A DNA stretch of 32,000 nt, taken from the NCBI RefSeq assembly GCF_000014265.1, contig NC_008312.1:5460001-5492000 (forward strand), in the 5' to 3' direction. Position 1 is the first letter of the stretch; every line of letters starts with the position of its first letter. Source of the stretch: Trichodesmium erythraeum IMS101 (GTDB lineage: Bacteria; Cyanobacteriota; Cyanobacteriia; Cyanobacteriales; Microcoleaceae). Under the pieces are notes generated by a model. It was not told the origin of the DNA. It worked only from the letters and a program-made list of their open reading frames with translations, and searched no databases. Of this stretch, positions 7,007 to 32,000 are shown piece after piece. The translations under genes were made by a program, and so were the position numbers.

Positions 7007-8129
7007 TATAGCAATCCTAAATAGGTCGCAACAGATATAATAGTAAGAATAACATCTCCAGTCAAAATACAAAGTAATGAATATTATAGATGAACTAGAC
7101 GATTTTATCAATCACACATGCATAGTCAAAAGAAATAAAAAGAGCCTTAGCTGTAAAAATGATTTTGTCGGGAAAATCCTATCATGAAGTCAAAGAATTA
7201 TTAAATGTAACTCAGCAGTTTAGAAAGCGAATGGAAAAACCAAGCACTGTTTCATGGCAAGTGAAAGTTTAAAGCTTCAATTATATTGGAACACAAGGTT
7301 ACTTAAAGGCCGAAGAAAAAGAGCAAATAATTGAGTGGTTGAGGGCACAAAATTACCTAAGATTGTCAGATTTACAAAAATATTTAAAGAAGCAATATGA
7401 TGTGGTTTTTGAGTCTAATCAAAGTTATTATAACTTACTCAAAGAAGCAGGAATAACTTGGAAAAAAACTCAAAAAAAAATCCCGCTAAAAATGATGAAT
7501 TAGTGAAAGCAAAAAAAAAAGAAATAGAGGAATTATTGACTAAATGGCAACCAGAAATAGAATCTGAAAATCTTACAGTGTTTATGATTGATGAATGTCA
7601 TCTATTATGGGGTGATCTATATAGCTATACTTGGGGAAGAACAGATAAAAGAATAGAAATTCCGATAAAAAAATGAAAAAGAAAGACAAACTTATTATGG
7701 AGCCAATTATTATCAAACTAAGGAATTTATTGTGCAAGAATATAAGAATGGAAATACTGAAAAAAAGAATGAATTTGTTAAATATTTACAAGAGCAAAGA
7801 CCAGGAAAAAGATTGGCAATATTTGGGGACGGTGCAACTTATCATAACTCTCAAGAATTTCGAGAATATCTGATGTTAATTAATCAAGATTTACCTGAAG
7901 AAGAATGGTTGATAAATTGTACGCTCATTTGCCCCAAATGCTCCTGAACAAAACCCTGTTGAAGATATTTGGTTGCAAACTAAAAGTTTCATCAGACAAT
8001 TTTATCATCTTTGCAGTTCTTTTAAAGTAGTTAAGTGGCTATTTAAGTTTTTTGCAGATGGTCAAATATTTGATTTCTCAAAGCTTTTTCAGTATGGAAT
8101 TTTGCCACAATCTATTTAGGATTGCTATA
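7007..8129 (+). mobile_element. Degenerate IS630/Tc1-mariner-family insertion sequence with terminal inverted repeats and TA flanks
   Basis: The left end tagcaatcctaaatag (7009-7024) is the exact reverse complement of the right end ctatttaggattgcta (8112-8127). Both ends are flanked by TA (7007-7008, 8128-8129), the IS630 target duplication. The interior encodes a broken DDE transposase. Confidence 0.85.
7078..8118 (+). pseudogene. IS630-family DDE transposase, multiply frameshifted
   Basis: Pieces in three frames join into a typical IS630 transposase: ...QSYYNLLKEAGITWKKTQKK / NPAKNDELVKAKKKEIEELL...FMIDECHLLWGD / NEKERQTYYGA.NYYQTKEF / AIFGDGATYHNSQEF / FAPNAPEQNPVEDIWLQTK. Frame breaks occur at the A9 run 7472-7480, at the A7 run 7667-7673 and near 7925. 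There is an in-frame stop near 7270. Confidence 0.85.
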
Positions 8130-8355
8130 TCGTAGTTAATTTTTATTTAACTTTCAAGTACCTCATCTGTTAGTCCTAAATATAATAAAATATTCTCTAC
8201 TTGTTCACGGGAGCAGAAGGTTTTATTTGTCAAAGTATCCGACTGTTTACCCCGGGTTTCTCCATTAGATGCTCCTTTTCAGGGGAGCACAGGACTTCGT
8301 GCAAGGGTGATTAAAAGATAATTGATTAACTGCTTGATTAATTTTATTACTAATA

Positions 8356-8850
8356 CTATCTTGATAAATTCATACCCTTAGCTATATTAAGAAACATACT
8401 CATACTAGGACCAGGACGACGACGTTTGGTTGGAAGTTGCAACATTAAAAGGTTAGGAGAAAATAATACTACCTCTTCTTGTTTCTGGGAAGTTGTACCA
8501 TTTGTGATCGGAGTTTCTGGTGTTACTACTTGAGGAGTAGTAGATTTTTGTAATTCAACTTTTTCGGCTTCTTTAGCAGCTTGAGTTTCTTTTGTTACTG
8601 CTTTTGCTGCTGGGTTTTTTTCCTCTTTTGTAGCAGCAGCAATTTCAGGTTTTGCTTCTTTTGGAGTTTCGGAACTATCAGATGGGGTTTCTGTCTCTGT
8701 AGGTGCTGCTGCTACAGTAGTTTGAGTTGATTCTTCTTTGGGGGTATTGGTTTCCTTTGTTTCCTGAAATTCTAATAGATATTCTGACTTTTTTGAAAAA
8801 GGAAAAATACCGAAAATTCCGGCAAATAACCCTCCTGTAAAAGCTAACAT
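8356..8850 (-). CDS. Hypothetical protein: N-terminal hydrophobic anchor, E/T/K/P-rich low-complexity middle, basic C-terminus
   Basis: 164-aa ORF with an N-terminal MLAFTGGLFAGIFGIFPF hydrophobic segment. Its 5' flank contains the purine-rich element GGAGAA (reverse complement of ttctcc, 8859-8864) 8 nt upstream of the ATG. I cannot name a family. Confidence 0.55.
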   Translation of the reverse strand: MLAFTGGLFAGIFGIFPFSKKSEYLLEFQETKETNTPKEESTQTTVAAAPTETETPSDSSETPKEAKPEIAAATKEEKNPAAKAVTKETQAAKEAEKVELQKSTTPQVVTPETPITNGTTSQKQEEVVLFSPNLLMLQLPTKRRRPGPSMSMFLNIAKGMNLSR

Positions 8851-9110
8851 GATTGTGTTCTCCTAAAATAATTGTTTTTGTAGTATTGCTTACAATCTAA
8901 TACTTTAGGATTAAGTGATGACTTGGCACAACCTATCTTCATATTTCTTAATAAAACTTTACATTAACCAGAATGGATATAGGCTCAGGACTGACCAACC
9001 CAAATAAGAAGCCTGGTTTATTACCCTAATTATTTGCTGTTCACTCTCACGATTTTTTTTTCGATAAAGTCGATTTTCCTATAGATAGATAAATATAGAA
9101 TTAGAAATAT

Positions 9111-9746
9111 ATGGAAAGTTTAAACAAACCTAATCCAGTATTGTTAATCCATGGAATTTTTGACACTATAAAAATATTTGATAAAATGTCTCGATACCTA
9201 AAAAAATTAGGATGGGAAGTATACTCTGTGAACTTAATTCCTAATTACGGTATTTTAGGTTTAGATAAATTAGCCGAACAAGTAGCGAATTATGTAGATA
9301 AAACATTTCCACCTAATCAACCTTTTGATTTAATAGGTTTTAGTATGGGAGGAATAGTAAGTCGTTATTATGTTCAAAGATTAGGAGGTATTGATAAAAT
9401 AGAACGTTTTATCACTATTTCTTCTCCTCACAATGGCACATTAACAGGTTACGTTTTAGGTTTACCAGCACCAATTCAAATGCGTCCTAAAAGTTATTTT
9501 TTGCAAGATATAAACCAGGATATTGCTTTGTTAGATCGGATAAATTTTACCTCAATTTGGACTCCTTATGATGCGATGATTTTACCGGCTAGAAGTTCTC
9601 AATTACCAGTAGGTCGAGATATCAAAATAGATGTTTTATTTCATGCTTGGATGGTATCATCTGGAAAGGTTTTAAAAGTAATTTCTGAGGAACTGAAAGC
9701 AGAGCCTAAGTCAAAACTAACTATGAGTTTTTACGATAGAAGTTAA
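9111..9746 (+). CDS. Alpha/beta-fold esterase/lipase (lipase class 2 / PGAP1-like)
   Basis: VLLIHGIFDT oxyanion region and GFSMGG nucleophile elbow. Size (~211 aa) is typical of small bacterial lipases. Confidence 0.75.
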   Translation: MESLNKPNPVLLIHGIFDTIKIFDKMSRYLKKLGWEVYSVNLIPNYGILGLDKLAEQVANYVDKTFPPNQPFDLIGFSMGGIVSRYYVQRLGGIDKIERFITISSPHNGTLTGYVLGLPAPIQMRPKSYFLQDINQDIALLDRINFTSIWTPYDAMILPARSSQLPVGRDIKIDVLFHAWMVSSGKVLKVISEELKAEPKSKLTMSFYDRS

Positions 9747-10312
9747 AAAAATTACGTTCCAAATACAATTTGTTCAAGTAATAATTTAAAATGCAATAAC
9801 TCTTGTTCTTAATTTTGGCTATTTTGGCAAATTGCCTAAAGTGATCTTAATGTTGATAAATTTATCATAAACTGCAAAAACCTAACCCAGTTATTTAATA
9901 AGGGAGTAGGGTATAAAAAATTATATTCCCTACTAATAACTATTACAATTGATTGAAAATATTTCCTCAGATCAAAAGTAGTGCTAGAAACAAATTATTA
10001 GTCATTGAGCCTATTTTTCCCATTCATTCATCACTTTTTCCATATCTATTTGATATCCAAATTTATAGCAGAATTCCTCCATCATCTTGTTTTTATCTTC
10101 TCACCAAATATCTTTATTATAATTAGCTTTCATAAAGTCTTACCAAGTATTAGTTTCTGCCAAAGATTAAACTATCTTGCACAAATTTCCTCATTGAGGT
10201 ATTGCAGCCAAAATACTAATTAGTAAAAAGACAAGTTCTTCAGTTTTAATTGTTATGCTCATTAATCATCTTTGTTAAACATATTACGAAGTAAAGGCTA
10301 CCCTACTTGATT

Positions 10313-10700
10313 TTACTTTTTAGCTTTTGTCAATAAATTAACCAAATTTTCAGCACGTCGATATTCTTGTTCAACAAGTTCTTCACCAGTTAATAATAAA
10401 TTGCCGTGATTATCCCACCAACATAATCAAAGTAGCTCTATATTATTAGAACCTGCCAAATACCTAACTCAATACCTAACTGCTGAATGGGAAAATAATT
10501 TCGTTCATTATCCTTTACCAATTCATAATTATTAGAAATTAAGCTATATAATTCTATAGGAATTTTTTTGACTTCATAAATGCAGTAAAATGGAATTATA
10601 ATCCCTTTTTCATAAACCCAAAACTTACAAGATTTTCTATCATCTTGAAAATCCGATATTATTGGCGAATTTTTGTCTCTTTTTTCTCCACTATTTCCAT
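10313..10700 (-). pseudogene. Remnant of a Uma2-family (DUF820) endonuclease gene
   Basis: Minus-strand translation gives ...KFWVYEKGIIIPFYCIYEVKKIPIELYSLISNNYELVKDNERNYFPIQQLGIELGIWQ, then a stop and frameshift, then LLWWDNHGNLLLTGEELVEQEYRRAENLVNLLTKAKK*. This resembles the C-terminal half of cyanobacterial Uma2 proteins. The N-terminal half is missing. Confidence 0.45.
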
Positions 10701-11839: not shown

Positions 11840-12277
11840 TTAAACTGCTATAATATCGCCAACTTCTTTATGGTCATTACAGCCAAAAATAGCTTCTTGA
11901 TGACAATAATATTTGAATTCTAGCAAGTTATAAAATGGATCTTCAAGGAAAAAAGTACGATGTTCCAAAGGAGAATTTGTAAACCTCCGCTTAGGTTGCT
12001 GATAGAATTTTAATTTATTTTTTTGAGCACGTTCTAATAAAGCTTCCCAGTCACTTTCTAGGCTAAAAACTAAACCAAAATGTCTGGGGTAAATTCCTTT
12101 TTGTGGTTCTAAAGTTTCTTTAGCAATATGAGCAACAATTTGATTACCATAAAGATTTAAAATCACTGAATTTCGAGATTCTCGCCCAACTTTACAACCT
12201 AAACCATTGCTATAGAATTCTTTCGTTTTGGTAATATTATTCACCGGAAAGGCTAAATGAAAAAGAACTTGATTCAT
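11840..12277 (-). CDS. VOC (glyoxalase/bleomycin-resistance/dioxygenase) family protein, the only full-length copy
   Basis: 145 aa. The HLAFPV..I..TKEFY...LGCKVGR start and the C-terminal FLEDPFYNLLEF segment fit the VOC beta-alpha-beta-beta-beta fold pattern. AAGGAA lies 6 nt upstream of the ATG. Confidence 0.8.
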   Translation of the reverse strand: MNQVLFHLAFPVNNITKTKEFYSNGLGCKVGRESRNSVILNLYGNQIVAHIAKETLEPQKGIYPRHFGLVFSLESDWEALLERAQKNKLKFYQQPKRRFTNSPLEHRTFFLEDPFYNLLEFKYYCHQEAIFGCNDHKEVGDIIAV

Positions 12278-12377
12278 AGTTATTTCCTTGTAATGTGTAA
12301 GTATTATTTTCTCTGGTAAATATTAAGTTAAAATGACAATAGATGTTTTTAGCGAGTAGATATAATGTTATCTAATA

Positions 12378-12710
12378 TTAATTCTGTAAATCCCTGGTTA
12401 AAGGAGAATTTGTAAACCTCCGCTTAGGTTGCTGATAGAATTTTAATTTATTTTTTTGAGCACGTTCTAATAAAGCTTCCCAGTCACTTTCTAGGCTAAA
12501 AACTAAACCAAAATGTCTGGGGTAAATTCCTTTTTGTGGTTCTAAAGTTTCTTTAGCAATATGAGCAACAATTTGATTACCATAAAGATTTAAAATCACT
12601 GAATTTCGAGATTCTCGCCCAACTTTACAACCTAAACCATTGCTATAGAATTCTTTCGTTTTGGTAATATTATTCGCCGGAAAGGCTAAATGAAAAAGAA
12701 CTTGATTCAT
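12378..12710 (-). pseudogene. Truncated VOC copy (codons 1-104 plus 6 junction-derived codons LTRDLQN*), array unit 2
   Basis: Identical to the full-length gene over 104 codons except Val12Ala (G at 12676). The tail is read from the antisense of the DUF92 gene start. It lacks the C-terminal 41 aa. Confidence 0.85.
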
Positions 12711-12810
12711 AGTTATTTCCTTGTAATGTGTAAGTATTATTTTCTCTGGTAAATATTAAGTTAAAATGACAATAGATGTTTTTAGCGAGTAGATATAATG
12801 TTATCTAATA

Positions 12811-13143
12811 TTAATTCTGTAAATCCCTGGTTAAAGGAGAATTTGTAAACCTCCGCTTAGGTTGCTGATAGAATTTTAATTTATTTTTTTGAGCACGTTC
12901 TAATAAAGCTTCCCAGTCACTTTCTAGGCTAAAAACTAAACCAAAATGTCTGGGGTAAATTCCTTTTTGTGGTTCTAAAGTTTCTTTAGCAATATGAGCA
13001 ACAATTTGATTACCATAAAGATTTAAAATCACTGAATTTCGAGATTCTCGCCCAACTTTACAACCTAAACCATTGCTATAGAATTCTTTCGTTTTGGTAA
13101 TATTATTCACCGGAAAGGCTAAATGAAAAAGAACTTGATTCAT
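12811..13143 (-). pseudogene. Truncated VOC copy, array unit 3
   Basis: 110-aa ORF identical in its first 104 aa to 11840-12277, with the same junction tail. Confidence 0.85.
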
Positions 13144-13243
13144 AGTTATTTCCTTGTAATGTGTAAGTATTATTTTCTCTGGTAAATATTAAGTTAAAAT
13201 GACAATAGATGTTTTTAGCGAGTAGATATAATGTTATCTAATA

Positions 13244-13576
13244 TTAATTCTGTAAATCCCTGGTTAAAGGAGAATTTGTAAACCTCCGCTTAGGTTGCTG
13301 ATAGAATTTTAATTTATTTTTTTGAGCACGTTCTAATAAAGCTTCCCAGTCACTTTCTAGGCTAAAAACTAAACCAAAATGTCTGGGGTAAATTCCTTTT
13401 TGTGGTTCTAAAGTTTCTTTAGCAATATGAGCAACAATTTGATTACCATAAAGATTTAAAATCACTGAATTTCGAGATTCTCGCCCAACTTTACAACCTA
13501 AACCATTGCTATAGAATTCTTTCGTTTTGGTAATATTATTCACCGGAAAGGCTAAATGAAAAAGAACTTGATTCAT
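13244..13576 (-). pseudogene. Truncated VOC copy, array unit 4
   Basis: 110-aa ORF identical in its first 104 aa to 11840-12277, with the same junction tail. Confidence 0.85.
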
Positions 13577-13676
13577 AGTTATTTCCTTGTAATGTGTAAG
13601 TATTATTTTCTCTGGTAAATATTAAGTTAAAATGACAATAGATGTTTTCAGCGAGTAGATATAATGTTATCTAATA

Positions 13677-14009
13677 TTAATTCTGTAAATCCCTGGTTAA
13701 AGGAGAATTTGTAAACCTCCGCTTAGGTTGTTGATAGAATTTTAATTTATTTTTTTGAGCACGTTCTAATAAAGCTTCCCAGTCACTTTCTAGGCTAAAA
13801 ACTAAACCAAAATGTCTGGGGTAAATTCCTTTTTGTGGTTCTAAAGTTTCTTTAGCAATATGAGCAACAATTTGATTACCATAAAGATTTAAAATCACTG
13901 AATTTCGAGATTCTCGCCCAACTTTACAACCTAAACCATTGCTATAGAATTCTTTCGTTTTGGTAATATTATTCACCGGAAAGGCTAAATGAAAAAGAAC
14001 TTGATTCAT
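13677..14009 (-). pseudogene. Truncated VOC copy, array unit 5
   Basis: 110-aa ORF identical in its first 104 aa, with a synonymous C-to-T change at 13731. Confidence 0.85.
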
Positions 14010-14109
14010 AGTTATTTCCTTGTAATGTGTAAGTATTATTTTCTCTGGTAAATATTAAGTTAAAATGACAATAGATGTTTTTAGCGAGTAGATATAATGT
14101 TATCTAATA

Positions 14110-14442
14110 TTAATTCTGTAAATCCCTGGTTAAAGGAGAATTTGTAAACCTCCGCTTAGGTTGTTGATAGAATTTTAATTTATTTTTTTGAGCACGTTCT
14201 AATAAAGCTTCCCAGTCACTTTCTAGGCTAAAAACTAAACCAAAATGTCTGGGGTAAATTCCTTTTTGTGGTTCTAAAGTTTCTTTAGCAATATGAGCAA
14301 CAATTTGATTACCATAAAGATTTAAAATCACTGAATTTCGAGATTCTCGCCCAACTTTACAACCTAAACCATTGCTATAGAATTCTTTCGTTTTGGTAAT
14401 ATTATTCACCGGAAAGGCTAAATGAAAAAGAACTTGATTCAT
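14110..14442 (-). pseudogene. Truncated VOC copy, array unit 6
   Basis: 110-aa ORF identical in its first 104 aa, with a synonymous T at 14164. Confidence 0.85.
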
Positions 14443-14542
14443 AGTTATTTCCTTGTAATGTGTAAGTATTATTTTCTCTGGTAAATATTAAGTTAAAATG
14501 ACAATAGATGTTTTTAGCGAGTAGATATAATGTTATCTAATA

Positions 14543-14875
14543 TTAATTCTGTAAATCCCTGGTTAAAGGAGAATTTGTAAACCTCCGCTTAGGTTGTTGA
14601 TAGAATTTTAATTTATTTTTTTGAGCACGTTCTAATAAAGCTTCCCAGTCACTTTCTAGGCTAAAAACTAAACCAAAATGTCTGGGGTAAATTCCTTTTT
14701 GTGGTTCTAAAGTTTCTTTAGCAATATGAGCAACAATTTGATTACCATAAAGATTTAAAATCACTGAATTTCGAGATTCTCGCCCAACTTTACAACCTAA
14801 ACCATTGCTATAGAATTCTTTCGTTTTGGTAATATTATTCACCGGAAAGGCTAAATGAAAAAGAACTTGATTCAT
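14543..14875 (-). pseudogene. Truncated VOC copy, array unit 7 (adjacent to the intact DUF92 gene)
   Basis: 110-aa ORF identical in its first 104 aa, with a synonymous T at 14597. Confidence 0.85.
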
Positions 14876-14962
14876 AGTTATTTCCTTGTAATGTGTAAGT
14901 ATTATTTTCTCTGGTAAATATTAAGTTAAAATGACAATAGATGTTTTTAGCGAGTAGATATA
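14876..14962. promoter_or_regulatory. 87-bp divergent intergenic region between the VOC (-) and DUF92 (+) genes; presumed bidirectional promoter, present in all seven units
   Basis: It is the only non-coding DNA between two divergently oriented start codons. The minus-strand AAGGAA (14882-14887) lies 6 nt before the VOC ATG. A TATAAT hexamer (14959-14964) overlaps the DUF92 ATG. No transcription start site can be assigned from sequence. Confidence 0.4.
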
Positions 14963-15748
14963 ATGTTATCTAATATTAATTCTGTAAATCCCTGGTTAGT
15001 AGCTATACTTTTAAATATTATTTTACTTAGTCTAGTTTATTTCGCTCCCAAAAAATTATTGACTCCCTGGGGAATAGTTCATGCTTGGATATTGGGAGTT
15101 TTAATTTGGGGTAGTTTGGGTTGGCCTGGATATGCGGTAGTGGTGTTTTATTTTTTGGTTGGTTCTGGGGTGACTCGCATTGGAATGGCCGAAAAGCAAG
15201 CCGCTGGAATTGCAGAAAAGCGGGAAGGTGCTAGAGGACCAGAAAATGTTTGGGGTTCGGCTTTGACTGCTGCTATCTGTGCTATGGGAGTTTGGGTCAT
15301 TGGTCTGTTATACCCGAATAATTTTCCTATAGAAAATTTACCATTGTTACTAATGTTAGGTTATGTAGCTAGTTTTAGTACTAAGCTTTCTGATACTTGT
15401 GCTAGTGAGGTAGGGAAAGCTTACGGTCAGCGGACTTTTTTAATTACAACTCTACAACCAGTGCCACGGGGAACTGAGGGTGCTGTAAGTTTAGAGGGGA
15501 CTTTAGCAGGTGTTGTGGCTTCTTTTGCGATCGCTGTAGTTGGTTGGACTGTAGGTTTAATTGATTTGACAGGAATAGTCTTTTGTGTTATTTCAGCTTT
15601 TATTGCTACTAATTTGGAGAGTTTAATTGGAGCAACAATGCAGTCTCAGTTTGAATGGTTAACAAATGAAGTTGTAAATATTATCAATACTTCAATTGGA
15701 GCGATCGCTGCAATTGTATTAGCTATAGTTTGGTTTAATAAATATTAA
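14963..15748 (+). CDS. DUF92/TIGR00297-family (TMEM19-like) integral membrane protein
   Basis: Multiple hydrophobic spans. Family-like motifs NPWL...APKKLLTPWG..HAW.LG, GARGPENVWGSALTAA, STKLSDTCASEVGKAYG and VPRGTEGAVSLEGTLAG. Confidence 0.8.
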   Translation: MLSNINSVNPWLVAILLNIILLSLVYFAPKKLLTPWGIVHAWILGVLIWGSLGWPGYAVVVFYFLVGSGVTRIGMAEKQAAGIAEKREGARGPENVWGSALTAAICAMGVWVIGLLYPNNFPIENLPLLLMLGYVASFSTKLSDTCASEVGKAYGQRTFLITTLQPVPRGTEGAVSLEGTLAGVVASFAIAVVGWTVGLIDLTGIVFCVISAFIATNLESLIGATMQSQFEWLTNEVVNIINTSIGAIAAIVLAIVWFNKY

Positions 15749-27632: not shown

Positions 27633-28577
27633 ATGGATAGACAAATACTAATTTCTTCAGATGACTATCAGGGCTGGTATAATGCGGGAGTAAATCTTAG
27701 TACACTGGGAAAATATCAGCACGCTATTATTGCTTTTGATAAGGCAATAAAAATTAAACCTGACTACTATGCTGCCTGGAATAATAGAGGCAATGCATTA
27801 AAAATATTAGGTAGATTACACTTAGCTTTAAATAATTTTAATCTAGCTATAAATATGGAACCAAATTATTATTTAGCGTGGTATAATAGAGGGAATTTAC
27901 TAAATGATTTAGGGCGATATCAGGAAGCAATAAGTTCTTTTGAGAAAGCGATACAAATTCAACCTAGTTTCTATCAAGCTTGGTACAATTTAGGAATTTC
28001 TTGGAATCGTTTAGGACATTACCAAGAAGCTTTTGAAAATTATCAGCAAGCAACAAAAATTAAACCTAATTTATATCAAGGGTGGTATAATGAAGGTAGA
28101 GTATTGTTTGACCTCGGAAGGTATCAGAGATCTTTGAAAAGTTTTGAGCAGGTAATAAAACTTAAACCTAATCATTATCGAGCTTGGAATTTTAAGGGAA
28201 AAACCTTATTTTATTTAGGGGATGCGGAAGGAGAAATTATGAGTTATGAGAAAGCAATAGAGGTGAAAATAGACTATCAGGAAGCTTGGAATAATTTAGG
28301 TCAAGCTTTGTCGAATTCAGGAAATTGGTATAAGGCGATTATTTGTTTTGATAAAGCTATAGAAATTAAGCCAGGTTATTCTTTGGCTTACTATAATAAA
28401 GCTCGTTGTTACGCTTTGCAGGAAAAGGTATATTTAGCAATTGAAAGTTTAGAAGAAGCTATTAATTTAGGGACTGATAAATACTACCGAGAAATGGCAC
28501 AAACTGATACTGATTTTAATAATATTCATTTGAATCCTAAGTTTCAGGATTTAATTAAGAGTGATTTGATGTCTTAG
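27633..28577 (+). CDS. Tetratricopeptide-repeat protein (about 8 consecutive TPRs)
   Basis: A 34-aa periodic W-N/Y-N-x-G-x-x-L-x-x-L-G-R-Y-Q-E-A-I-x-x-F-E-K-A-I-x-I-K-P-x-Y pattern repeats throughout. Confidence 0.9.
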   Translation: MDRQILISSDDYQGWYNAGVNLSTLGKYQHAIIAFDKAIKIKPDYYAAWNNRGNALKILGRLHLALNNFNLAINMEPNYYLAWYNRGNLLNDLGRYQEAISSFEKAIQIQPSFYQAWYNLGISWNRLGHYQEAFENYQQATKIKPNLYQGWYNEGRVLFDLGRYQRSLKSFEQVIKLKPNHYRAWNFKGKTLFYLGDAEGEIMSYEKAIEVKIDYQEAWNNLGQALSNSGNWYKAIICFDKAIEIKPGYSLAYYNKARCYALQEKVYLAIESLEEAINLGTDKYYREMAQTDTDFNNIHLNPKFQDLIKSDLMS

Positions 28578-28976
28578 AAGGAAGACTTTTGAGTAGGAGA
28601 CCTATTCATAAGCCCTTTTAGTACGAGGAGTAGTAGAAAGGATATTGATTGTATAAAGGTCTCCGTACAACATTTAAAAATTAATACAATTCGAGAGGGT
28701 TTATTGACGGATAAACTTACTTCTTATTTATTTTGGGCGGGCAATTATTTGTTTAATTTACTTGATGCAAATAACTAATATAATTTACGGAATTTAAAAG
28801 TAAAAATTTATACATTAATATTTTAAAAGTTTAATTTTTTTATGCAACAGTAATTTCAGTATTTCATATTTCAATATCAAGTTTTAATATCAATATAAGT
28901 AGTGTAGCCTAAGTTAATGAAATTAGTTTAATATATAAAAAGTTAAATAATTAAATAATCAAATAATCAAATAATT

Positions 28977-31328
28977 ATGATGGAATGGTTAATTACTTGG
29001 GGAGCTGGTAAAGCAGTTGAGTTTCTTGCTGAGAAAGTTATCGGAGAGTTAGTTAAGGGTGCTGCTGAAGACTACGTTAAAGATTTTTTTAAGCAATGTT
29101 TTTCTAATGCTATTAGCAACATAACAGAGAAAGAACCTTTGCAAAAAGCTATGGCAGAAGCAACTAAAGAATTTTTAGAATTAGTACAAAAAGAATTAAA
29201 AGAAGTTGGCGTGGATGAAAGTCAATTAGAGCAGTATATTAAACCCTTAGAAAAGTTTATTAAAAATAAATCAGTTTTGGCAATTTTGGGTAGTGCTTTT
29301 GAGGAAAATATAACTCTAGATATTAAGCAATTAGCTACTATTGGGAATCAAATAAACCCATCTTTTTTACCAGATGAATTTGACTGGGACTTAGTTATCA
29401 GGCAATACCAGAGAAAAGTCAAAAAGATTATTCAAAAATCAGATGAATTACGGCAAATATTAGATTCCAAATCTCTGGAAGAACTGGCAAGTCAAACTTC
29501 AGTCAAACCCGAATTTAACTTAATAAAACATCAAGAGGGAATTCGAGAAAGATATGGCAACCTCAGATTAGACAGTTTAGATACTAAAGGTCTCGCTTAT
29601 AACATCGAATTATTGAAAATTTTTATTCCTCAAAAAGTACGGAAAATTCAAGAATTTATACCTCAAATTCATCTTATGCCCAAACAATATCAACAGCAAT
29701 TAAAAGAGACTGGGCAGTTAGAAACAGCACTTTCTCAAGAACAATTAGAAAGTTTGGAGCGCCAATATTTTGAACAGCAGACTCGTTCAGTTTTAGAATT
29801 ACAAAAAAACAAAGAATATCAATATTTAGTAATCTTAGGTGACCCTGGTTCTGGTAAGTCTACTTTATTAAGATATATAGCTCTTGAGTGGACAAAAATA
29901 TTACCCAAAGATTTACCTTTTCATCCAATTCCTATACTAATTGAACTGCAAACTTATATGGGTAATTATAATGAAAAAAAGTGTGAAAATTTTCTAGATT
30001 TCCTAGAAAAAGGTAGTGGAGTTATTTGTCATATCTCTCAAAAGGAACTTCATAACAAATTAAAAAAGGGTGAAGCTATTGTCATGTTTGATGGGTTAGA
30101 TGAAGTTTTCGACCCTGAAAAACGAGAAAGGGTAATAACTGATATTCATCGGTTTACTAATGACTATAAAAAGGTGCGAGTTATTGTTACTTCGCGGGTA
30201 ATAGGTTATAAATTACAAAGACTCCGAGATGCTGAATTTTGTCATTTTATGTTGCAAGATTTAGATGAGGAACAAATTAATTATTTTATTAAAAATTGGC
30301 ATGAGCTTACTTACAAAAGTGAAGAAGAAGAGACAAAAAAGTGGAGAATGGGACGGTTAAAACAAGCAATTAAGGATTTTTCAGCTATTAAAGAAATCGC
30401 TAGAAATCCTCTATTATTAACTATGATGGCTATTATGAATCGTAATCAAGAACTTCCAAAATATAAAGCTGACCTCTATAATAATTCTTCAGAACTTTTG
30501 TTAAAGTGGGATGTAGAAAGGGCGCTTCGTAGAGAAGGGATGGAACAAATTAATCTTGACTCTATAACAATTAAAGACAAGCAGGAAATATTGCGCCGGA
30601 TGGCTAAGTTTATGCAGGAAAATAAAAAAGGTTTTGCTGGCAATTTAATCTCTGAGAATAATGTAGAAATAATTATCAAAGAATATCTAGATTTTCTAGG
30701 TTTTAAGGATGCAATAATTATAGCTAGAGCCCTGCTTAAAGAGTTACGCAATCGGAATTTTATTTTATGTTTTGTTGGGGGTGGATATTATGCTTTTGTA
30801 CATCGAACTTTTTTAGAATATTTCTGTGCCTGGAGTTTTGTTTGGGAGTTTAAGGAGACACAAACTATAAACATAAATCAGTTGATAAATGATGTTTTTG
30901 AGAACCATTGGCGGGATGAAAATTGGCATGAAATTTTGCGATTAATTGCAGGAAAGATTAATGCTAATTTTGTGGGAAAAATTATTGGTTATTTGATGGA
31001 AAAAGATGGGGAAGAAGAAAAATTTATGAATTTATTTTTGGCGGGGAAATGTTTATTTGAAGTTGAACACCCTCAGCATATTGATGAGATAGCTTCTGAG
31101 TTATTGAATAGGTTAAAAGCTTTGACAAATTATAATCTTGATCATATTGACTATGATAGTAAAATTCGTACTCAAGCTGTAAAACTTGTGGCAGAAACTT
31201 GGAGGGATAATCGTTTAAATGAGGCTAATATTAAGACTTGGCTCGATAATATTGCAGAATCTCATAGTGATTTGAATGTACGGGAGAGAGCAAAAGAAGA
31301 GTTAGCTACTAGATGGAAAAATGACTGA
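28977..31328 (+). CDS. NACHT-family STAND NTPase with a ~280-aa uncharacterised helical N-terminal region and a helical-repeat C-terminus
   Basis: Walker A GDPGSGKST (nt 29838-29864), Walker B IVMFDGLDEV (from nt 30078), VIVTSR sensor region and NPLLLTMMA winged-helix motif. The C-terminal NVRERAKEELA is HEAT-like. Confidence 0.8.
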   Translation: MMEWLITWGAGKAVEFLAEKVIGELVKGAAEDYVKDFFKQCFSNAISNITEKEPLQKAMAEATKEFLELVQKELKEVGVDESQLEQYIKPLEKFIKNKSVLAILGSAFEENITLDIKQLATIGNQINPSFLPDEFDWDLVIRQYQRKVKKIIQKSDELRQILDSKSLEELASQTSVKPEFNLIKHQEGIRERYGNLRLDSLDTKGLAYNIELLKIFIPQKVRKIQEFIPQIHLMPKQYQQQLKETGQLETALSQEQLESLERQYFEQQTRSVLELQKNKEYQYLVILGDPGSGKSTLLRYIALEWTKILPKDLPFHPIPILIELQTYMGNYNEKKCENFLDFLEKGSGVICHISQKELHNKLKKGEAIVMFDGLDEVFDPEKRERVITDIHRFTNDYKKVRVIVTSRVIGYKLQRLRDAEFCHFMLQDLDEEQINYFIKNWHELTYKSEEEETKKWRMGRLKQAIKDFSAIKEIARNPLLLTMMAIMNRNQELPKYKADLYNNSSELLLKWDVERALRREGMEQINLDSITIKDKQEILRRMAKFMQENKKGFAGNLISENNVEIIIKEYLDFLGFKDAIIIARALLKELRNRNFILCFVGGGYYAFVHRTFLEYFCAWSFVWEFKETQTININQLINDVFENHWRDENWHEILRLIAGKINANFVGKIIGYLMEKDGEEEKFMNLFLAGKCLFEVEHPQHIDEIASELLNRLKALTNYNLDHIDYDSKIRTQAVKLVAETWRDNRLNEANIKTWLDNIAESHSDLNVRERAKEELATRWKND

Positions 31329-31397
31329 TAAATTTGAAAAAAATAAGCCACGAATTCTCTTATTTTTTTCTATGGAATGTCAAAAGGTTAAATAACT

Positions 31398-32000
31398 ATG
31401 ATTGAACATTTAATTACTTGGATTTCTACTCAAGAGGTTGATTTTTTTACAAAGGAAGTTATTAGAGAATTAGCTAAACGTACACCTAAAGACTACGTTA
31501 AAGATTTTTTTAATTGGCTTATTTTTTACCTAAATGGTAGCAATATAAATACAAAGACTTTAGAAAAAGCAAATGTAGAAGCAATTAAAGAATTTTTGCA
31601 ATTGGTAAAGCAAGAATTAGAAGAAGTTGAGTTAGATGAAAGTCGATTAGAGCGATATATTGAACCCTTAGAACAATTTCTTAAAAATAAGTATGTTTTA
31701 AGAACTTTAGGTAGTGCATTTAATCATAATGTCAAAATTTTAGATACTAAGAAACTAGCTACTATCTGGAATAAAATTAATCCGCCCCTACCCGATGATT
31801 TTGACTGGGTCTTAGTTGTTAAGCAATATCAGAGAAGGGTGAAAAAAATTATTCGAGATTCTGATGAATTACGGAAAATATTAGACTCAGAAACCCTCGC
31901 TCAAATAGCAAATCAAAATTATAAAATTACACCAGAATTTGACCTCAGAAAATATCAAGAAGGAATCCAAGAACAATATGGAAAACTCAAATTAGAAAGT
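31398..32000 (+). CDS. Second NACHT-type protein, paralogous N-terminal region only (3' end outside the window)
   Basis: Not in the supplied ORF track because it has no stop in the window. The frame from ATG 31398 stays open for 201 codons to nt 32000. It aligns colinearly with residues 1-200 of the upstream NACHT protein, roughly half identical by eye (e.g. DYVKDFF, IKEFL.LV.QEL.EV..DES.LE.YI.PLE.F.KNK, LGSAF, DDFDW.LV..QYQR.VKKII..SDELR.ILDS). Confidence 0.75.
   Translation, partial: MIEHLITWISTQEVDFFTKEVIRELAKRTPKDYVKDFFNWLIFYLNGSNINTKTLEKANVEAIKEFLQLVKQELEEVELDESRLERYIEPLEQFLKNKYVLRTLGSAFNHNVKILDTKKLATIWNKINPPLPDDFDWVLVVKQYQRRVKKIIRDSDELRKILDSETLAQIANQNYKITPEFDLRKYQEGIQEQYGKLKLES

Follow-up and report, generated by a model that had tools for sequence, protein, structure and literature searches.

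Closest described systems and the locus under study

The closest described relatives of the genes reported here are the bacterial NACHT (bNACHT) proteins surveyed by Kibby et al. (bioRxiv 10.1101/2022.07.19.500537; all statements on this source refer to the available part of its text and tables). There, bacterial NACHT proteins of several clades were shown to be anti-phage, the name NNH was introduced, HEAT arrays were described as "antigen-receptor-type" sensors, and up to 23 NACHT paralogs were given per cyanobacterial genome. In Table S1 of that survey, NNH2+NACHT+HEAT appears as the architecture of proteins from Okeania sp. SIO2B3 (NET46618.1, clade 3) and Westiellopsis (TBR56486.1, clade 2), and NNH2+NACHT+FGE-sulfatase is entered for Chloroflexi and Nitrospirae. 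NNH2 is not attributed to any of the 27 tested proteins, NNH1 being named in the figure legend, and no activity is assigned to NNH2. We analyzed a stretch of 32,000 nucleotides from Trichodesmium erythraeum IMS101 (contig NC_008312.1, positions 5,460,001 to 5,492,000; hereafter the window), which ends in two adjacent genes, gene 1 and gene 2. With high confidence, both belong to the cyanobacterial NLR-related STAND NTPases of the catalogued NNH2-NACHT-HEAT family.

In domain order and domain families, the two proteins agree with these NNH2+NACHT+HEAT entries of the survey, which come from identical or closely related genera. Gene 2 can in effect be regarded as an ortholog-level member with the common tripartite layout of N-terminal module, NACHT, and repeat sensor. 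This layout is present in gene 2 and in the wider family but not in gene 1, which carries about 1.5 repeats. A location among defense genes was not seen at the window, and a relative in Nostoc lies amid HicAB, ParE, and Uma2. While the family has been surveyed and NNH2 is in Pfam, the occurrence of a sensor-poor short copy always followed by a full-sensor long copy is unreported; the available text and table of Kibby et al. do not mention a short form with a constant long partner. Literature searches on NNH2, on NACHT with Trichodesmium, and on bNACHT with a helper or paired NLR retrieved no functional study. The explanation that we favor, with a probability of roughly 0.6 for the whole, is that the genes belong to the catalogued family, that they form a conserved short-long pair, and that they act as a ligand-gated switch in which the short protein would be an amplifier or helper or would tune the threshold.

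A short NNH2-NACHT gene followed by a long partner

Gene 1 is complete. Gene 2 starts with an ATG at 31398 and its frame is open up to the window end, where the gene is cut. A preliminary description of the window had reported two genes on the same strand 69 bp apart, and this agrees with the coordinates of the open reading frames (ORFs). It had also noted colinear similarity of the N-termini at roughly 50% identity; BLASTP gave 58% over 203 amino acids with five gap positions (E = 4e-68), and the tandem paralogy of the two genes was thus borne out. A homology search with gene 1 retrieved at least 2661 proteins; nearly all of the best 120 contained NNH2 and NACHT, and most contained HEAT repeats in addition. 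Homologs with a named source were NACHT or HEAT-repeat proteins from Trichodesmium, Okeania, Dapis, Nostoc, Calothrix, Coleofasciculus, and similar filamentous cyanobacteria. Gene 1 has neither the long HEAT array nor the conserved C-terminal cap that is present in almost all relatives. It differs from gene 2 mainly in the missing HEAT array, rather than by a diverged sensor.

Trichodesmium MAG_R02, Okeania SIO3B5 and KiyG1, and several metagenomes also encode short forms of 770-785 amino acids. In a neighbor-joining tree of 39 sequences and 714 columns, these and gene 1 formed a monophyletic clade with 100% bootstrap, sister to the long forms of marine Microcoleaceae. At all 10 loci of this clade for which downstream sequence is available (window/L001, L002, L003, L004, L005, L006, L027, L084, L085, and L086), the short gene has a long NNH2-NACHT(-HEAT) gene downstream of it on the same strand, 28-73 bp away where measured. 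The flanks of the pair vary by genus, with a DAO oxidoreductase and PsbQ in Okeania and a TPR protein and GH116 here. As the short-long order is kept while the surrounding genes differ between genera, we regard the pair as a conserved unit. The constant order in Trichodesmium and Okeania provides a testable candidate for cooperative bacterial NLR pairs; no paper describing a cooperative NLR pair of the short-long kind in bacteria was found in the literature searched.

One of these loci (L086, a marine metagenome contig of 4942 bp) contains three consecutive family genes on the same strand, i.e. an array and not a pair. A long form, of which the contig contains the HEAT-repeat end, is followed by a 785-amino acid short form (P0061, from a cluster of 112 members) and then by another NNH2-NACHT gene.

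The octamer repeat TTAAATAA in the leader of gene 1 is built from the motif GGTTAAATAA(T/C)TATG. This motif or a close variant stands directly before the start codon of most short and long genes (L004, L005, L006, L084, L086, and the window), with slight variation at some loci, e.g. L006; its second copy in the window, at 31383-31400, precedes gene 2. The 69-bp gap was inspected for a terminator-like hairpin and for conserved RNA structure, and neither was found. Its conservation, 50 invariant columns out of 76, was not clearly above the expectation from synonymous divergence (dS) of 0.13-0.35. Judging from gene order and spacing, the two genes are probably co-transcribed.

Domain architecture and the NACHT module

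The features of the pair are collected in Table 1. All three motifs quoted in the preliminary description, Walker A, Walker B, and TSR, were located in gene 1, and gene 2 carries intact versions of them beyond the window. Walker A conforms to GxxGxGKS/T, and Walker B shows the additional acidic residues that are typical of NACHT proteins (hhhhDGhDE). With 35.0 bits, the Pfam NACHT match of gene 1 exceeded the cut-off (26.7). Residues Gly288, Pro290, Gly293, Lys294, Ser295, Asp372, Asp375, Glu376, Thr405, Ser406, and Arg407 were invariant in 91 sequences. The full-length AlphaFold model of gene 1, based on 91 aligned sequences, had a mean predicted local distance difference test score (pLDDT) of 79.4 and a predicted template modeling score (pTM) of 0.75. 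When it was compared with the PDB by Foldseek, the top 43 matches were without exception NLRC4, NOD2, NLRP3, NAIP5, or other NLRP members; the best E value was 6e-10, and the matches to NLRC4, NOD2, and NLRP3 spanned more than 600 columns. We therefore conclude that the NACHT module of gene 1 is complete, and the proposal of NACHT-clade STAND NTPases with an NLR-like layout is upheld by these matches. The helical C-terminus expected for gene 1 was found as well, consisting of a helical domain and, after it, about 1.5 HEAT-like repeats.

Table 1. Coordinates of the gene pair and its features (positions in the window)
Feature	Position	Strand	Basis
AT-rich leader upstream of gene 1, octamer repeat TTAAATAA, 4.4 copies	28943..28976	+	Tandem Repeats Finder
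Gene 1, short-form NNH2-NACHT, complete, 783 amino acids	28977..31328	+	ORF, Pfam, 90-homolog alignment, AlphaFold
Conserved N-terminal segment, gene 1 residues 1-24, before the Pfam NNH2 match	28977..29048	+	Alignment
NNH2 domain (Pfam PF22734), gene 1 residues 25-203, predicted all-helical	29049..29585	+	hmmscan
NACHT nucleotide-binding domain, residues 283-443	29823..30305	+	Pfam PF05729
Walker A, G288-DPGSGKS-T296	29838-29864	+	
Walker B, IVMFDGLDEV, residues 368-377	30078-30107	+	
TSR sensor-1 motif, T405-S406-R407	30189-30197	+	
Helical domain 1, winged-helix domain, helical domain 2, approximately residues 431-720	30267..31136	+	AlphaFold, Foldseek
Residual HEAT-like C-terminus of gene 1, residues 721-783, three helices	31137..31325	+	AlphaFold, comparison with long homologs
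Intergenic gap, 69 bp, ending in shared GGTTAAATAACTATG leader	31329..31397	+	Sequence comparison
Gene 2, first 201 codons of long-form NNH2-NACHT-HEAT protein	31398..32000	+	ORF, Pfam

The HEAT array of the long partner and evolution of the pair

A public contig (L001) that is identical to the window over an overlap of 13,024 bp extends gene 2 to at least 899 codons. It ends within at least four HEAT units of 102 bp (34 amino acids) that are 98% identical. The contig breaks off inside such repeats, as assemblies typically do. On contigs L001-L003, all of which stop inside or before the repeats, the end of gene 2 was not reached, and no sign of pseudogenization was seen over the readable codons, at least 899 in number. 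The second gene has thus proved open with intact motifs as far as it can be read, its own C-terminal end lying further downstream, and complete orthologs of 1130, 1204, and 1473 amino acids end in a conserved cap (…NDPF…NPRQ…DRAENDPDE…).

Units of the HEAT array in complete long partners are near-identical except at positions 1, 3, 6-9, 12, and 15, where nonsynonymous differences far exceed synonymous ones in pairwise comparison. The excess of nonsynonymous change at these hypervariable positions supports a variable recognition surface. The preliminary description had suggested diversifying selection on sensor specificity from the divergence of the tandem paralogs. Diversification is indeed seen at the hypervariable HEAT positions of the long partners, but it does not take the form of divergence between the sensors of gene 1 and gene 2. 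In some close homologs the HEAT array is replaced or extended by other domains while the NNH2-NACHT part is constant: DUF1822 (PF08852) in P0045 and DUF1257 (PF06868) in P0095, P0096, P0097, P0100, and P0108.

Ratios of nonsynonymous to synonymous substitution (dN/dS) were determined according to Nei and Gojobori between Trichodesmium and Okeania orthologs and ranged from 0.35 to 0.57 in gene 1 and from 0.30 to 0.38 in gene 2. Both genes are under purifying selection yet fast-evolving. Within the short form, evolution is fastest in the residual HEAT tail, which in gene 1 has a dN/dS of ~1.06 against Trichodesmium MAG_R02, a value that rests on 63 codons. Between Trichodesmium and Okeania (gene 1 and gene 2 against L004, L005, and L006), dS was ~0.35 despite a protein identity of only 75-78%; possible reasons are a transfer of genes between the two genera and an unusually rapid evolution of the proteins.

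These data bear on whether gene 1 is a decaying, truncated, or dominant-negative remnant without a function of its own, with gene 2 possibly broken beyond the window. Such a remnant would lack the HEAT array and cap, as gene 1 does, and its tail would drift at a dN/dS near 1 against the closest ortholog; the short gene at L085 is moreover split into ORFs of 67 and 703 amino acids, and the end of gene 2 lies beyond L001. However, at least seven lineages have undamaged short forms of 770-785 residues (59-85% identity), none of the family-invariant residues has been lost, and dN/dS is well below 1 over the whole of gene 1. Gene 2, for its part, is open with intact motifs as far as it can be read, its orthologs are complete, and the contig stops where assemblies typically break. 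We consider decay to be very improbable.

The NNH2 domain

Pfam identified the N-terminal region of both proteins, N-terminal to the NACHT module, as PF22734, "NACHT N-terminal Helical domain 2" (NNH2). Gene 1 matched with an E value of 5e-58 and 196.2 bits over all 181 model positions, and gene 2 with 4.6e-54 and 183.3 bits (residues 25-201, model positions 1-178, up to the window end), in each case against a cut-off of 27. The module had been thought uncharacterized and about 280 amino acids long. Neither holds, as the domain is already named in Pfam and residues 204-282 are the lead-in of the NACHT module. A catalytic motif was not recognizable in NNH2.

The extreme N-terminus is conserved as M-x-D/E-W-L-x-x-W-G-x-x-x-A-V-G-F. 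Hydrophobicity is moderate over residues 4-22 (best Kyte-Doolittle mean over 19 residues 0.8 in gene 1 and 0.3 in gene 2, up to 1.5 in relatives), and a transmembrane helix at this place was rejected for the window proteins since hydrophobicity is too low. An amphipathic helix at residues 22-40, the most amphipathic stretch of the window proteins, had a hydrophobic moment of 0.45 in gene 1, of 0.45-0.54 in the window proteins, and of 0.45-0.57 overall, exceeded by 1-3% of shuffles; its reading as a membrane-inserting helix is suggestive only. Helices were predicted at residues 53-76, 81-96, 98-108, 116-126, 137-154, and 182-193 in both the full-length model and the model of the domain alone, and further ones at 156-162 and 167-172 in the former and at 156-173 in the latter. 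The NNH2-alone model had a pLDDT of 69, with a well modeled core of residues 51-170.

Foldseek gave no significant match of the NNH2 model in the PDB (best E = 0.58, template modeling score below 0.3) or in BFVD. The ZAR1 coiled-coil domain, the MLKL four-helix bundle, and HET-S HeLo were not named among the 50 listed PDB matches of this model, in which residues 1-50 have a pLDDT below 55. Because the predicted fold matches nothing in the PDB or BFVD, the analogies drawn earlier to coiled-coil NLRs and to four-helix-bundle executioner domains are unsupported. AlkD2 and smu.31, found in a comparison of the profile with PDB sequences over a 45-residue stretch (E = 0.007-0.014), were dismissed as helical-repeat noise.

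When residues 1-270 were compared with 1.84 billion cluster representatives, there were only 369 matches, nearly always starting at residue 1. In a set of 44 divergent representatives, NNH2 was present in all 44 and NACHT in 43, the remaining protein being without another partner domain; HEAT_2 occurred in 33, GUN4 in two, TPR in one, and a reverse-transcriptase domain in one, and no fusion of NNH2 to an effector domain was found among them. From its distribution in these sequences, NNH2 appears to be dedicated to NACHT proteins. Effector-associated adaptor domains (EADs) are small domains that occur both on an NTPase and, separately, on effector-fused proteins (Kaur et al. 2020). The suggestion that the N-terminal region could be an EAD fails, because sharing with separate effector proteins, the defining property of EADs, is not seen for NNH2, which was restricted to NACHT proteins (43 of 44). 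A BASS amyloid motif was also considered and rejected: residues 1-50 of either gene lack similarity to the upstream TPR or GH116 proteins. The N-termini of both genes are poor in Gly, Asn, Gln, and Ser, and the upstream gene of the pair is not conserved. As no motif is common to the pair and the upstream gene, amyloid-motif signaling is disfavored. In one homolog of 1290 amino acids (P0149), NNH2 is located at residues 572-799, behind a 570-residue N-terminal region without a Pfam match.

A conserved linked effector gene was sought among the neighbors of 80 loci and none was found, no neighboring gene family occurring in more than 11 of them. Since there is no recurrent neighbor and NNH2 is exclusive to NACHT proteins, NNH2 is the only candidate output module at the locus. 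Being exclusive to NACHT proteins and without a known fold relative, this candidate output module offers a clean target in the search for effectors.

Proposed mechanism and alternatives

The mechanism that we propose is modeled on the established behavior of NACHT and other STAND proteins. The HEAT array of the long protein would keep it in an ADP-bound, autoinhibited state and would bind a foreign or danger ligand. Ligand binding would then lead to nucleotide exchange and NACHT-driven oligomerization of the long protein, and oligomerization would cluster the N-terminal NNH2 domains. The short paralog, having no real sensor, would most plausibly join the activated long protein or be nucleated by it and so act as an amplifier or helper, or else it would tune the threshold of the long protein. 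That the short protein cooperates with its downstream partner in one of these ways, as helper, amplifier, or threshold regulator, is put forward tentatively. A still more specific version, a prokaryotic sensor/helper NLR pair in which the long HEAT array would sense and nucleate the short protein and in which clustered NNH2 would be a new cell-death or growth-arrest effector, appears doubtful.

Several observations weigh against the favored explanation. No phenotype for any NNH2 protein is on record in the available literature, for which reason we infer an anti-phage or cell-death role of the pair from its family. At 76 of 80 genome loci with a long form, no second NNH2 or NACHT gene was present within the DNA fetched (up to 6 kb to each side, some contigs being shorter), and a short partner is therefore not generally required. 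At a Tara locus, the downstream partner groups with P0042, which belongs to another long-form lineage, and this mix of lineages among the downstream partners is as compatible with tandem arrays as with a dedicated pair. P0118, a separate short form outside the clade, is a singleton next to an integrase. Residues 1-50 of NNH2 were modeled with low confidence. Finally, the neighbors in the window (genes for a nitrite/sulfite reductase, an RNA methyltransferase, hydrolases, DUF92, a PPIase, a nitroreductase, an NmrA-like protein, and GH116) are housekeeping genes without defense or mobile-element genes among them, and PADLOC and NCBIfam assigned no specific defense family, giving matches at the P-loop level alone. 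Assignments to PtuA and to EruA (31.8 bits against a cut-off of 1000) from these searches were rejected.

The main rival is that the genes are plain tandem paralogs, i.e. uncoupled, independent sensors that lie side by side through local duplication, with the short form sensing via its helical domain and residual repeats. Family members are indeed numerous, with at least three to four loci each in Okeania KiyG1, Trichodesmium MAG_R02 and MAG_R03, and Dapis M229, and with the up to 23 NACHT paralogs per cyanobacterial genome of the survey cited above. Most long forms are singletons, and L086 is a long-short-long array whose downstream partner comes from a different long-form lineage. On the other hand, uncoupled paralogs would have to explain why an old short clade stands directly upstream of a long form in 10 of 10 loci across differing flanks, and chance retention of adjacency over such a span would be unusual. 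Independence of the two genes is possible, but we rate it clearly below the conserved, switch-like pair.

A different objection is that the proteins are not immune sensors but STAND regulators of an endogenous program, such as stress- or nutrient-induced cell death, filament fragmentation, or differentiation in Trichodesmium, with the HEAT array binding a host component. The housekeeping context without a defense island would suit such a role, as would the lack of a PADLOC model for these proteins and the concentration of the family in filamentous, multicellular cyanobacteria. In some NNH2-NACHT relatives, GUN4, a chlorophyll-precursor sensor, stands in place of or beside HEAT, as is also evident from the available part of Kibby et al. 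Yet the nonsynonymous excess at the hypervariable HEAT positions is as expected for a sensor that tracks variable targets, and dN/dS values of 0.3-0.57 exceed what we would expect of a conserved housekeeping regulator. The family member of Nostoc sp. UHCC 0702 lies amid HicAB, ParE, and Uma2 and another member adjoins an integrase, and bacterial NACHT proteins from several clades are anti-phage according to the same survey. A purely endogenous role hence seems unlikely to us.

Comparison with NLR pairs, fungal NLRs, and Avs

NAIP-NLRC4 and the plant pairs RGA5/RGA4, RRS1/RPS4, and Pias-2/Pias-1 each consist of two related, linked or cooperating NLR-type NTPases, one of which has a recognition function. 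Here, stable linkage of two NLR paralogs was found in all ten short-clade loci, and the domain content fits a division of labor between sensor and helper, as the HEAT array is confined to the long partner. Both members of the plant pairs share the kind of N-terminal domain, as they do here, and the structures of NLRC4 and NAIP5 match the NACHT fold of gene 1. The short-long pair, known from its genes, resembles these systems by analogy only. There are also clear differences. Plant NLR pairs are usually arranged head-to-head, whereas the pair described here is head-to-tail with a 69-bp gap. NLRC4 keeps its leucine-rich repeats (LRRs), whereas the short form is almost without repeats, and the sensors here are of the HEAT and not of the LRR type.

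Fungal NLRs of the HET-E/HET-D type carry WD40, ANK, or TPR arrays whose highly conserved repeats contain hypervariable sites. The long partners resemble them in their near-identical C-terminal units (98% DNA identity here) with variation at a few, mostly nonsynonymous positions, and in the presence of many paralogs in a multicellular organism. They differ in the type of repeat, a 34-residue HEAT unit, and in the unrelated N-terminal domain. Homogenized HEAT units with hypervariable sites are a pattern typical of fungal and other eukaryotic NLR sensors, and its presence in the long partners supports the evolution of such sensors in multicellular bacteria. Trichodesmium fixes nitrogen and is of ecological importance. 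Its blooms collapse by way of programmed cell death, and a death-linked switch in this organism would be of interest for that reason.

Avs proteins likewise combine an N-terminal output domain, a STAND NTPase, and a C-terminal repeat sensor in a single polypeptide without a conserved neighbor. They belong to other STAND clades, however, and carry recognizable nuclease, protease, or other effectors, whereas NNH2 has no recognizable catalytic motif. The PADLOC models for Avs did not match the window proteins.

Neighboring genes and other observations

The gene upstream of the pair (27633-28577) encodes a TPR protein of 314 amino acids with a TPR end-of-group domain (NF047558). It is probably unrelated to the pair, as it is not conserved beside it in Okeania. 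The Nostoc relative mentioned above (L088, chromosome of Nostoc sp. UHCC 0702, 8001-10604) has 867 amino acids, and its gene comes immediately after four tandem genes for Uma2-family endonucleases and immediately before HicA/HicB. ParE, more Uma2 genes, and a transposase are nearby, an accessory-gene context unlike that of the window.

Two further repeats were noted elsewhere in the window. A 433-bp unit is repeated 7.0 times head-to-tail at 11967-14998, with 0-1 differences between copies. On the minus strand (ORFs 12378-14875 and 11840-12277), six units contain a truncated glyoxalase/VOC ORF of 110 amino acids (PF00903), and one full-length copy of 145 amino acids lies beside the array, which looks like an amplified 5' part of the gene together with its upstream region. 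In the 3' part of a nitrite/sulfite reductase-like ORF (50-2536), 51-bp tandem repeats at 1897-2321 (6.6 copies, 88% matches) should encode a repetitive C-terminal tail of the predicted protein.

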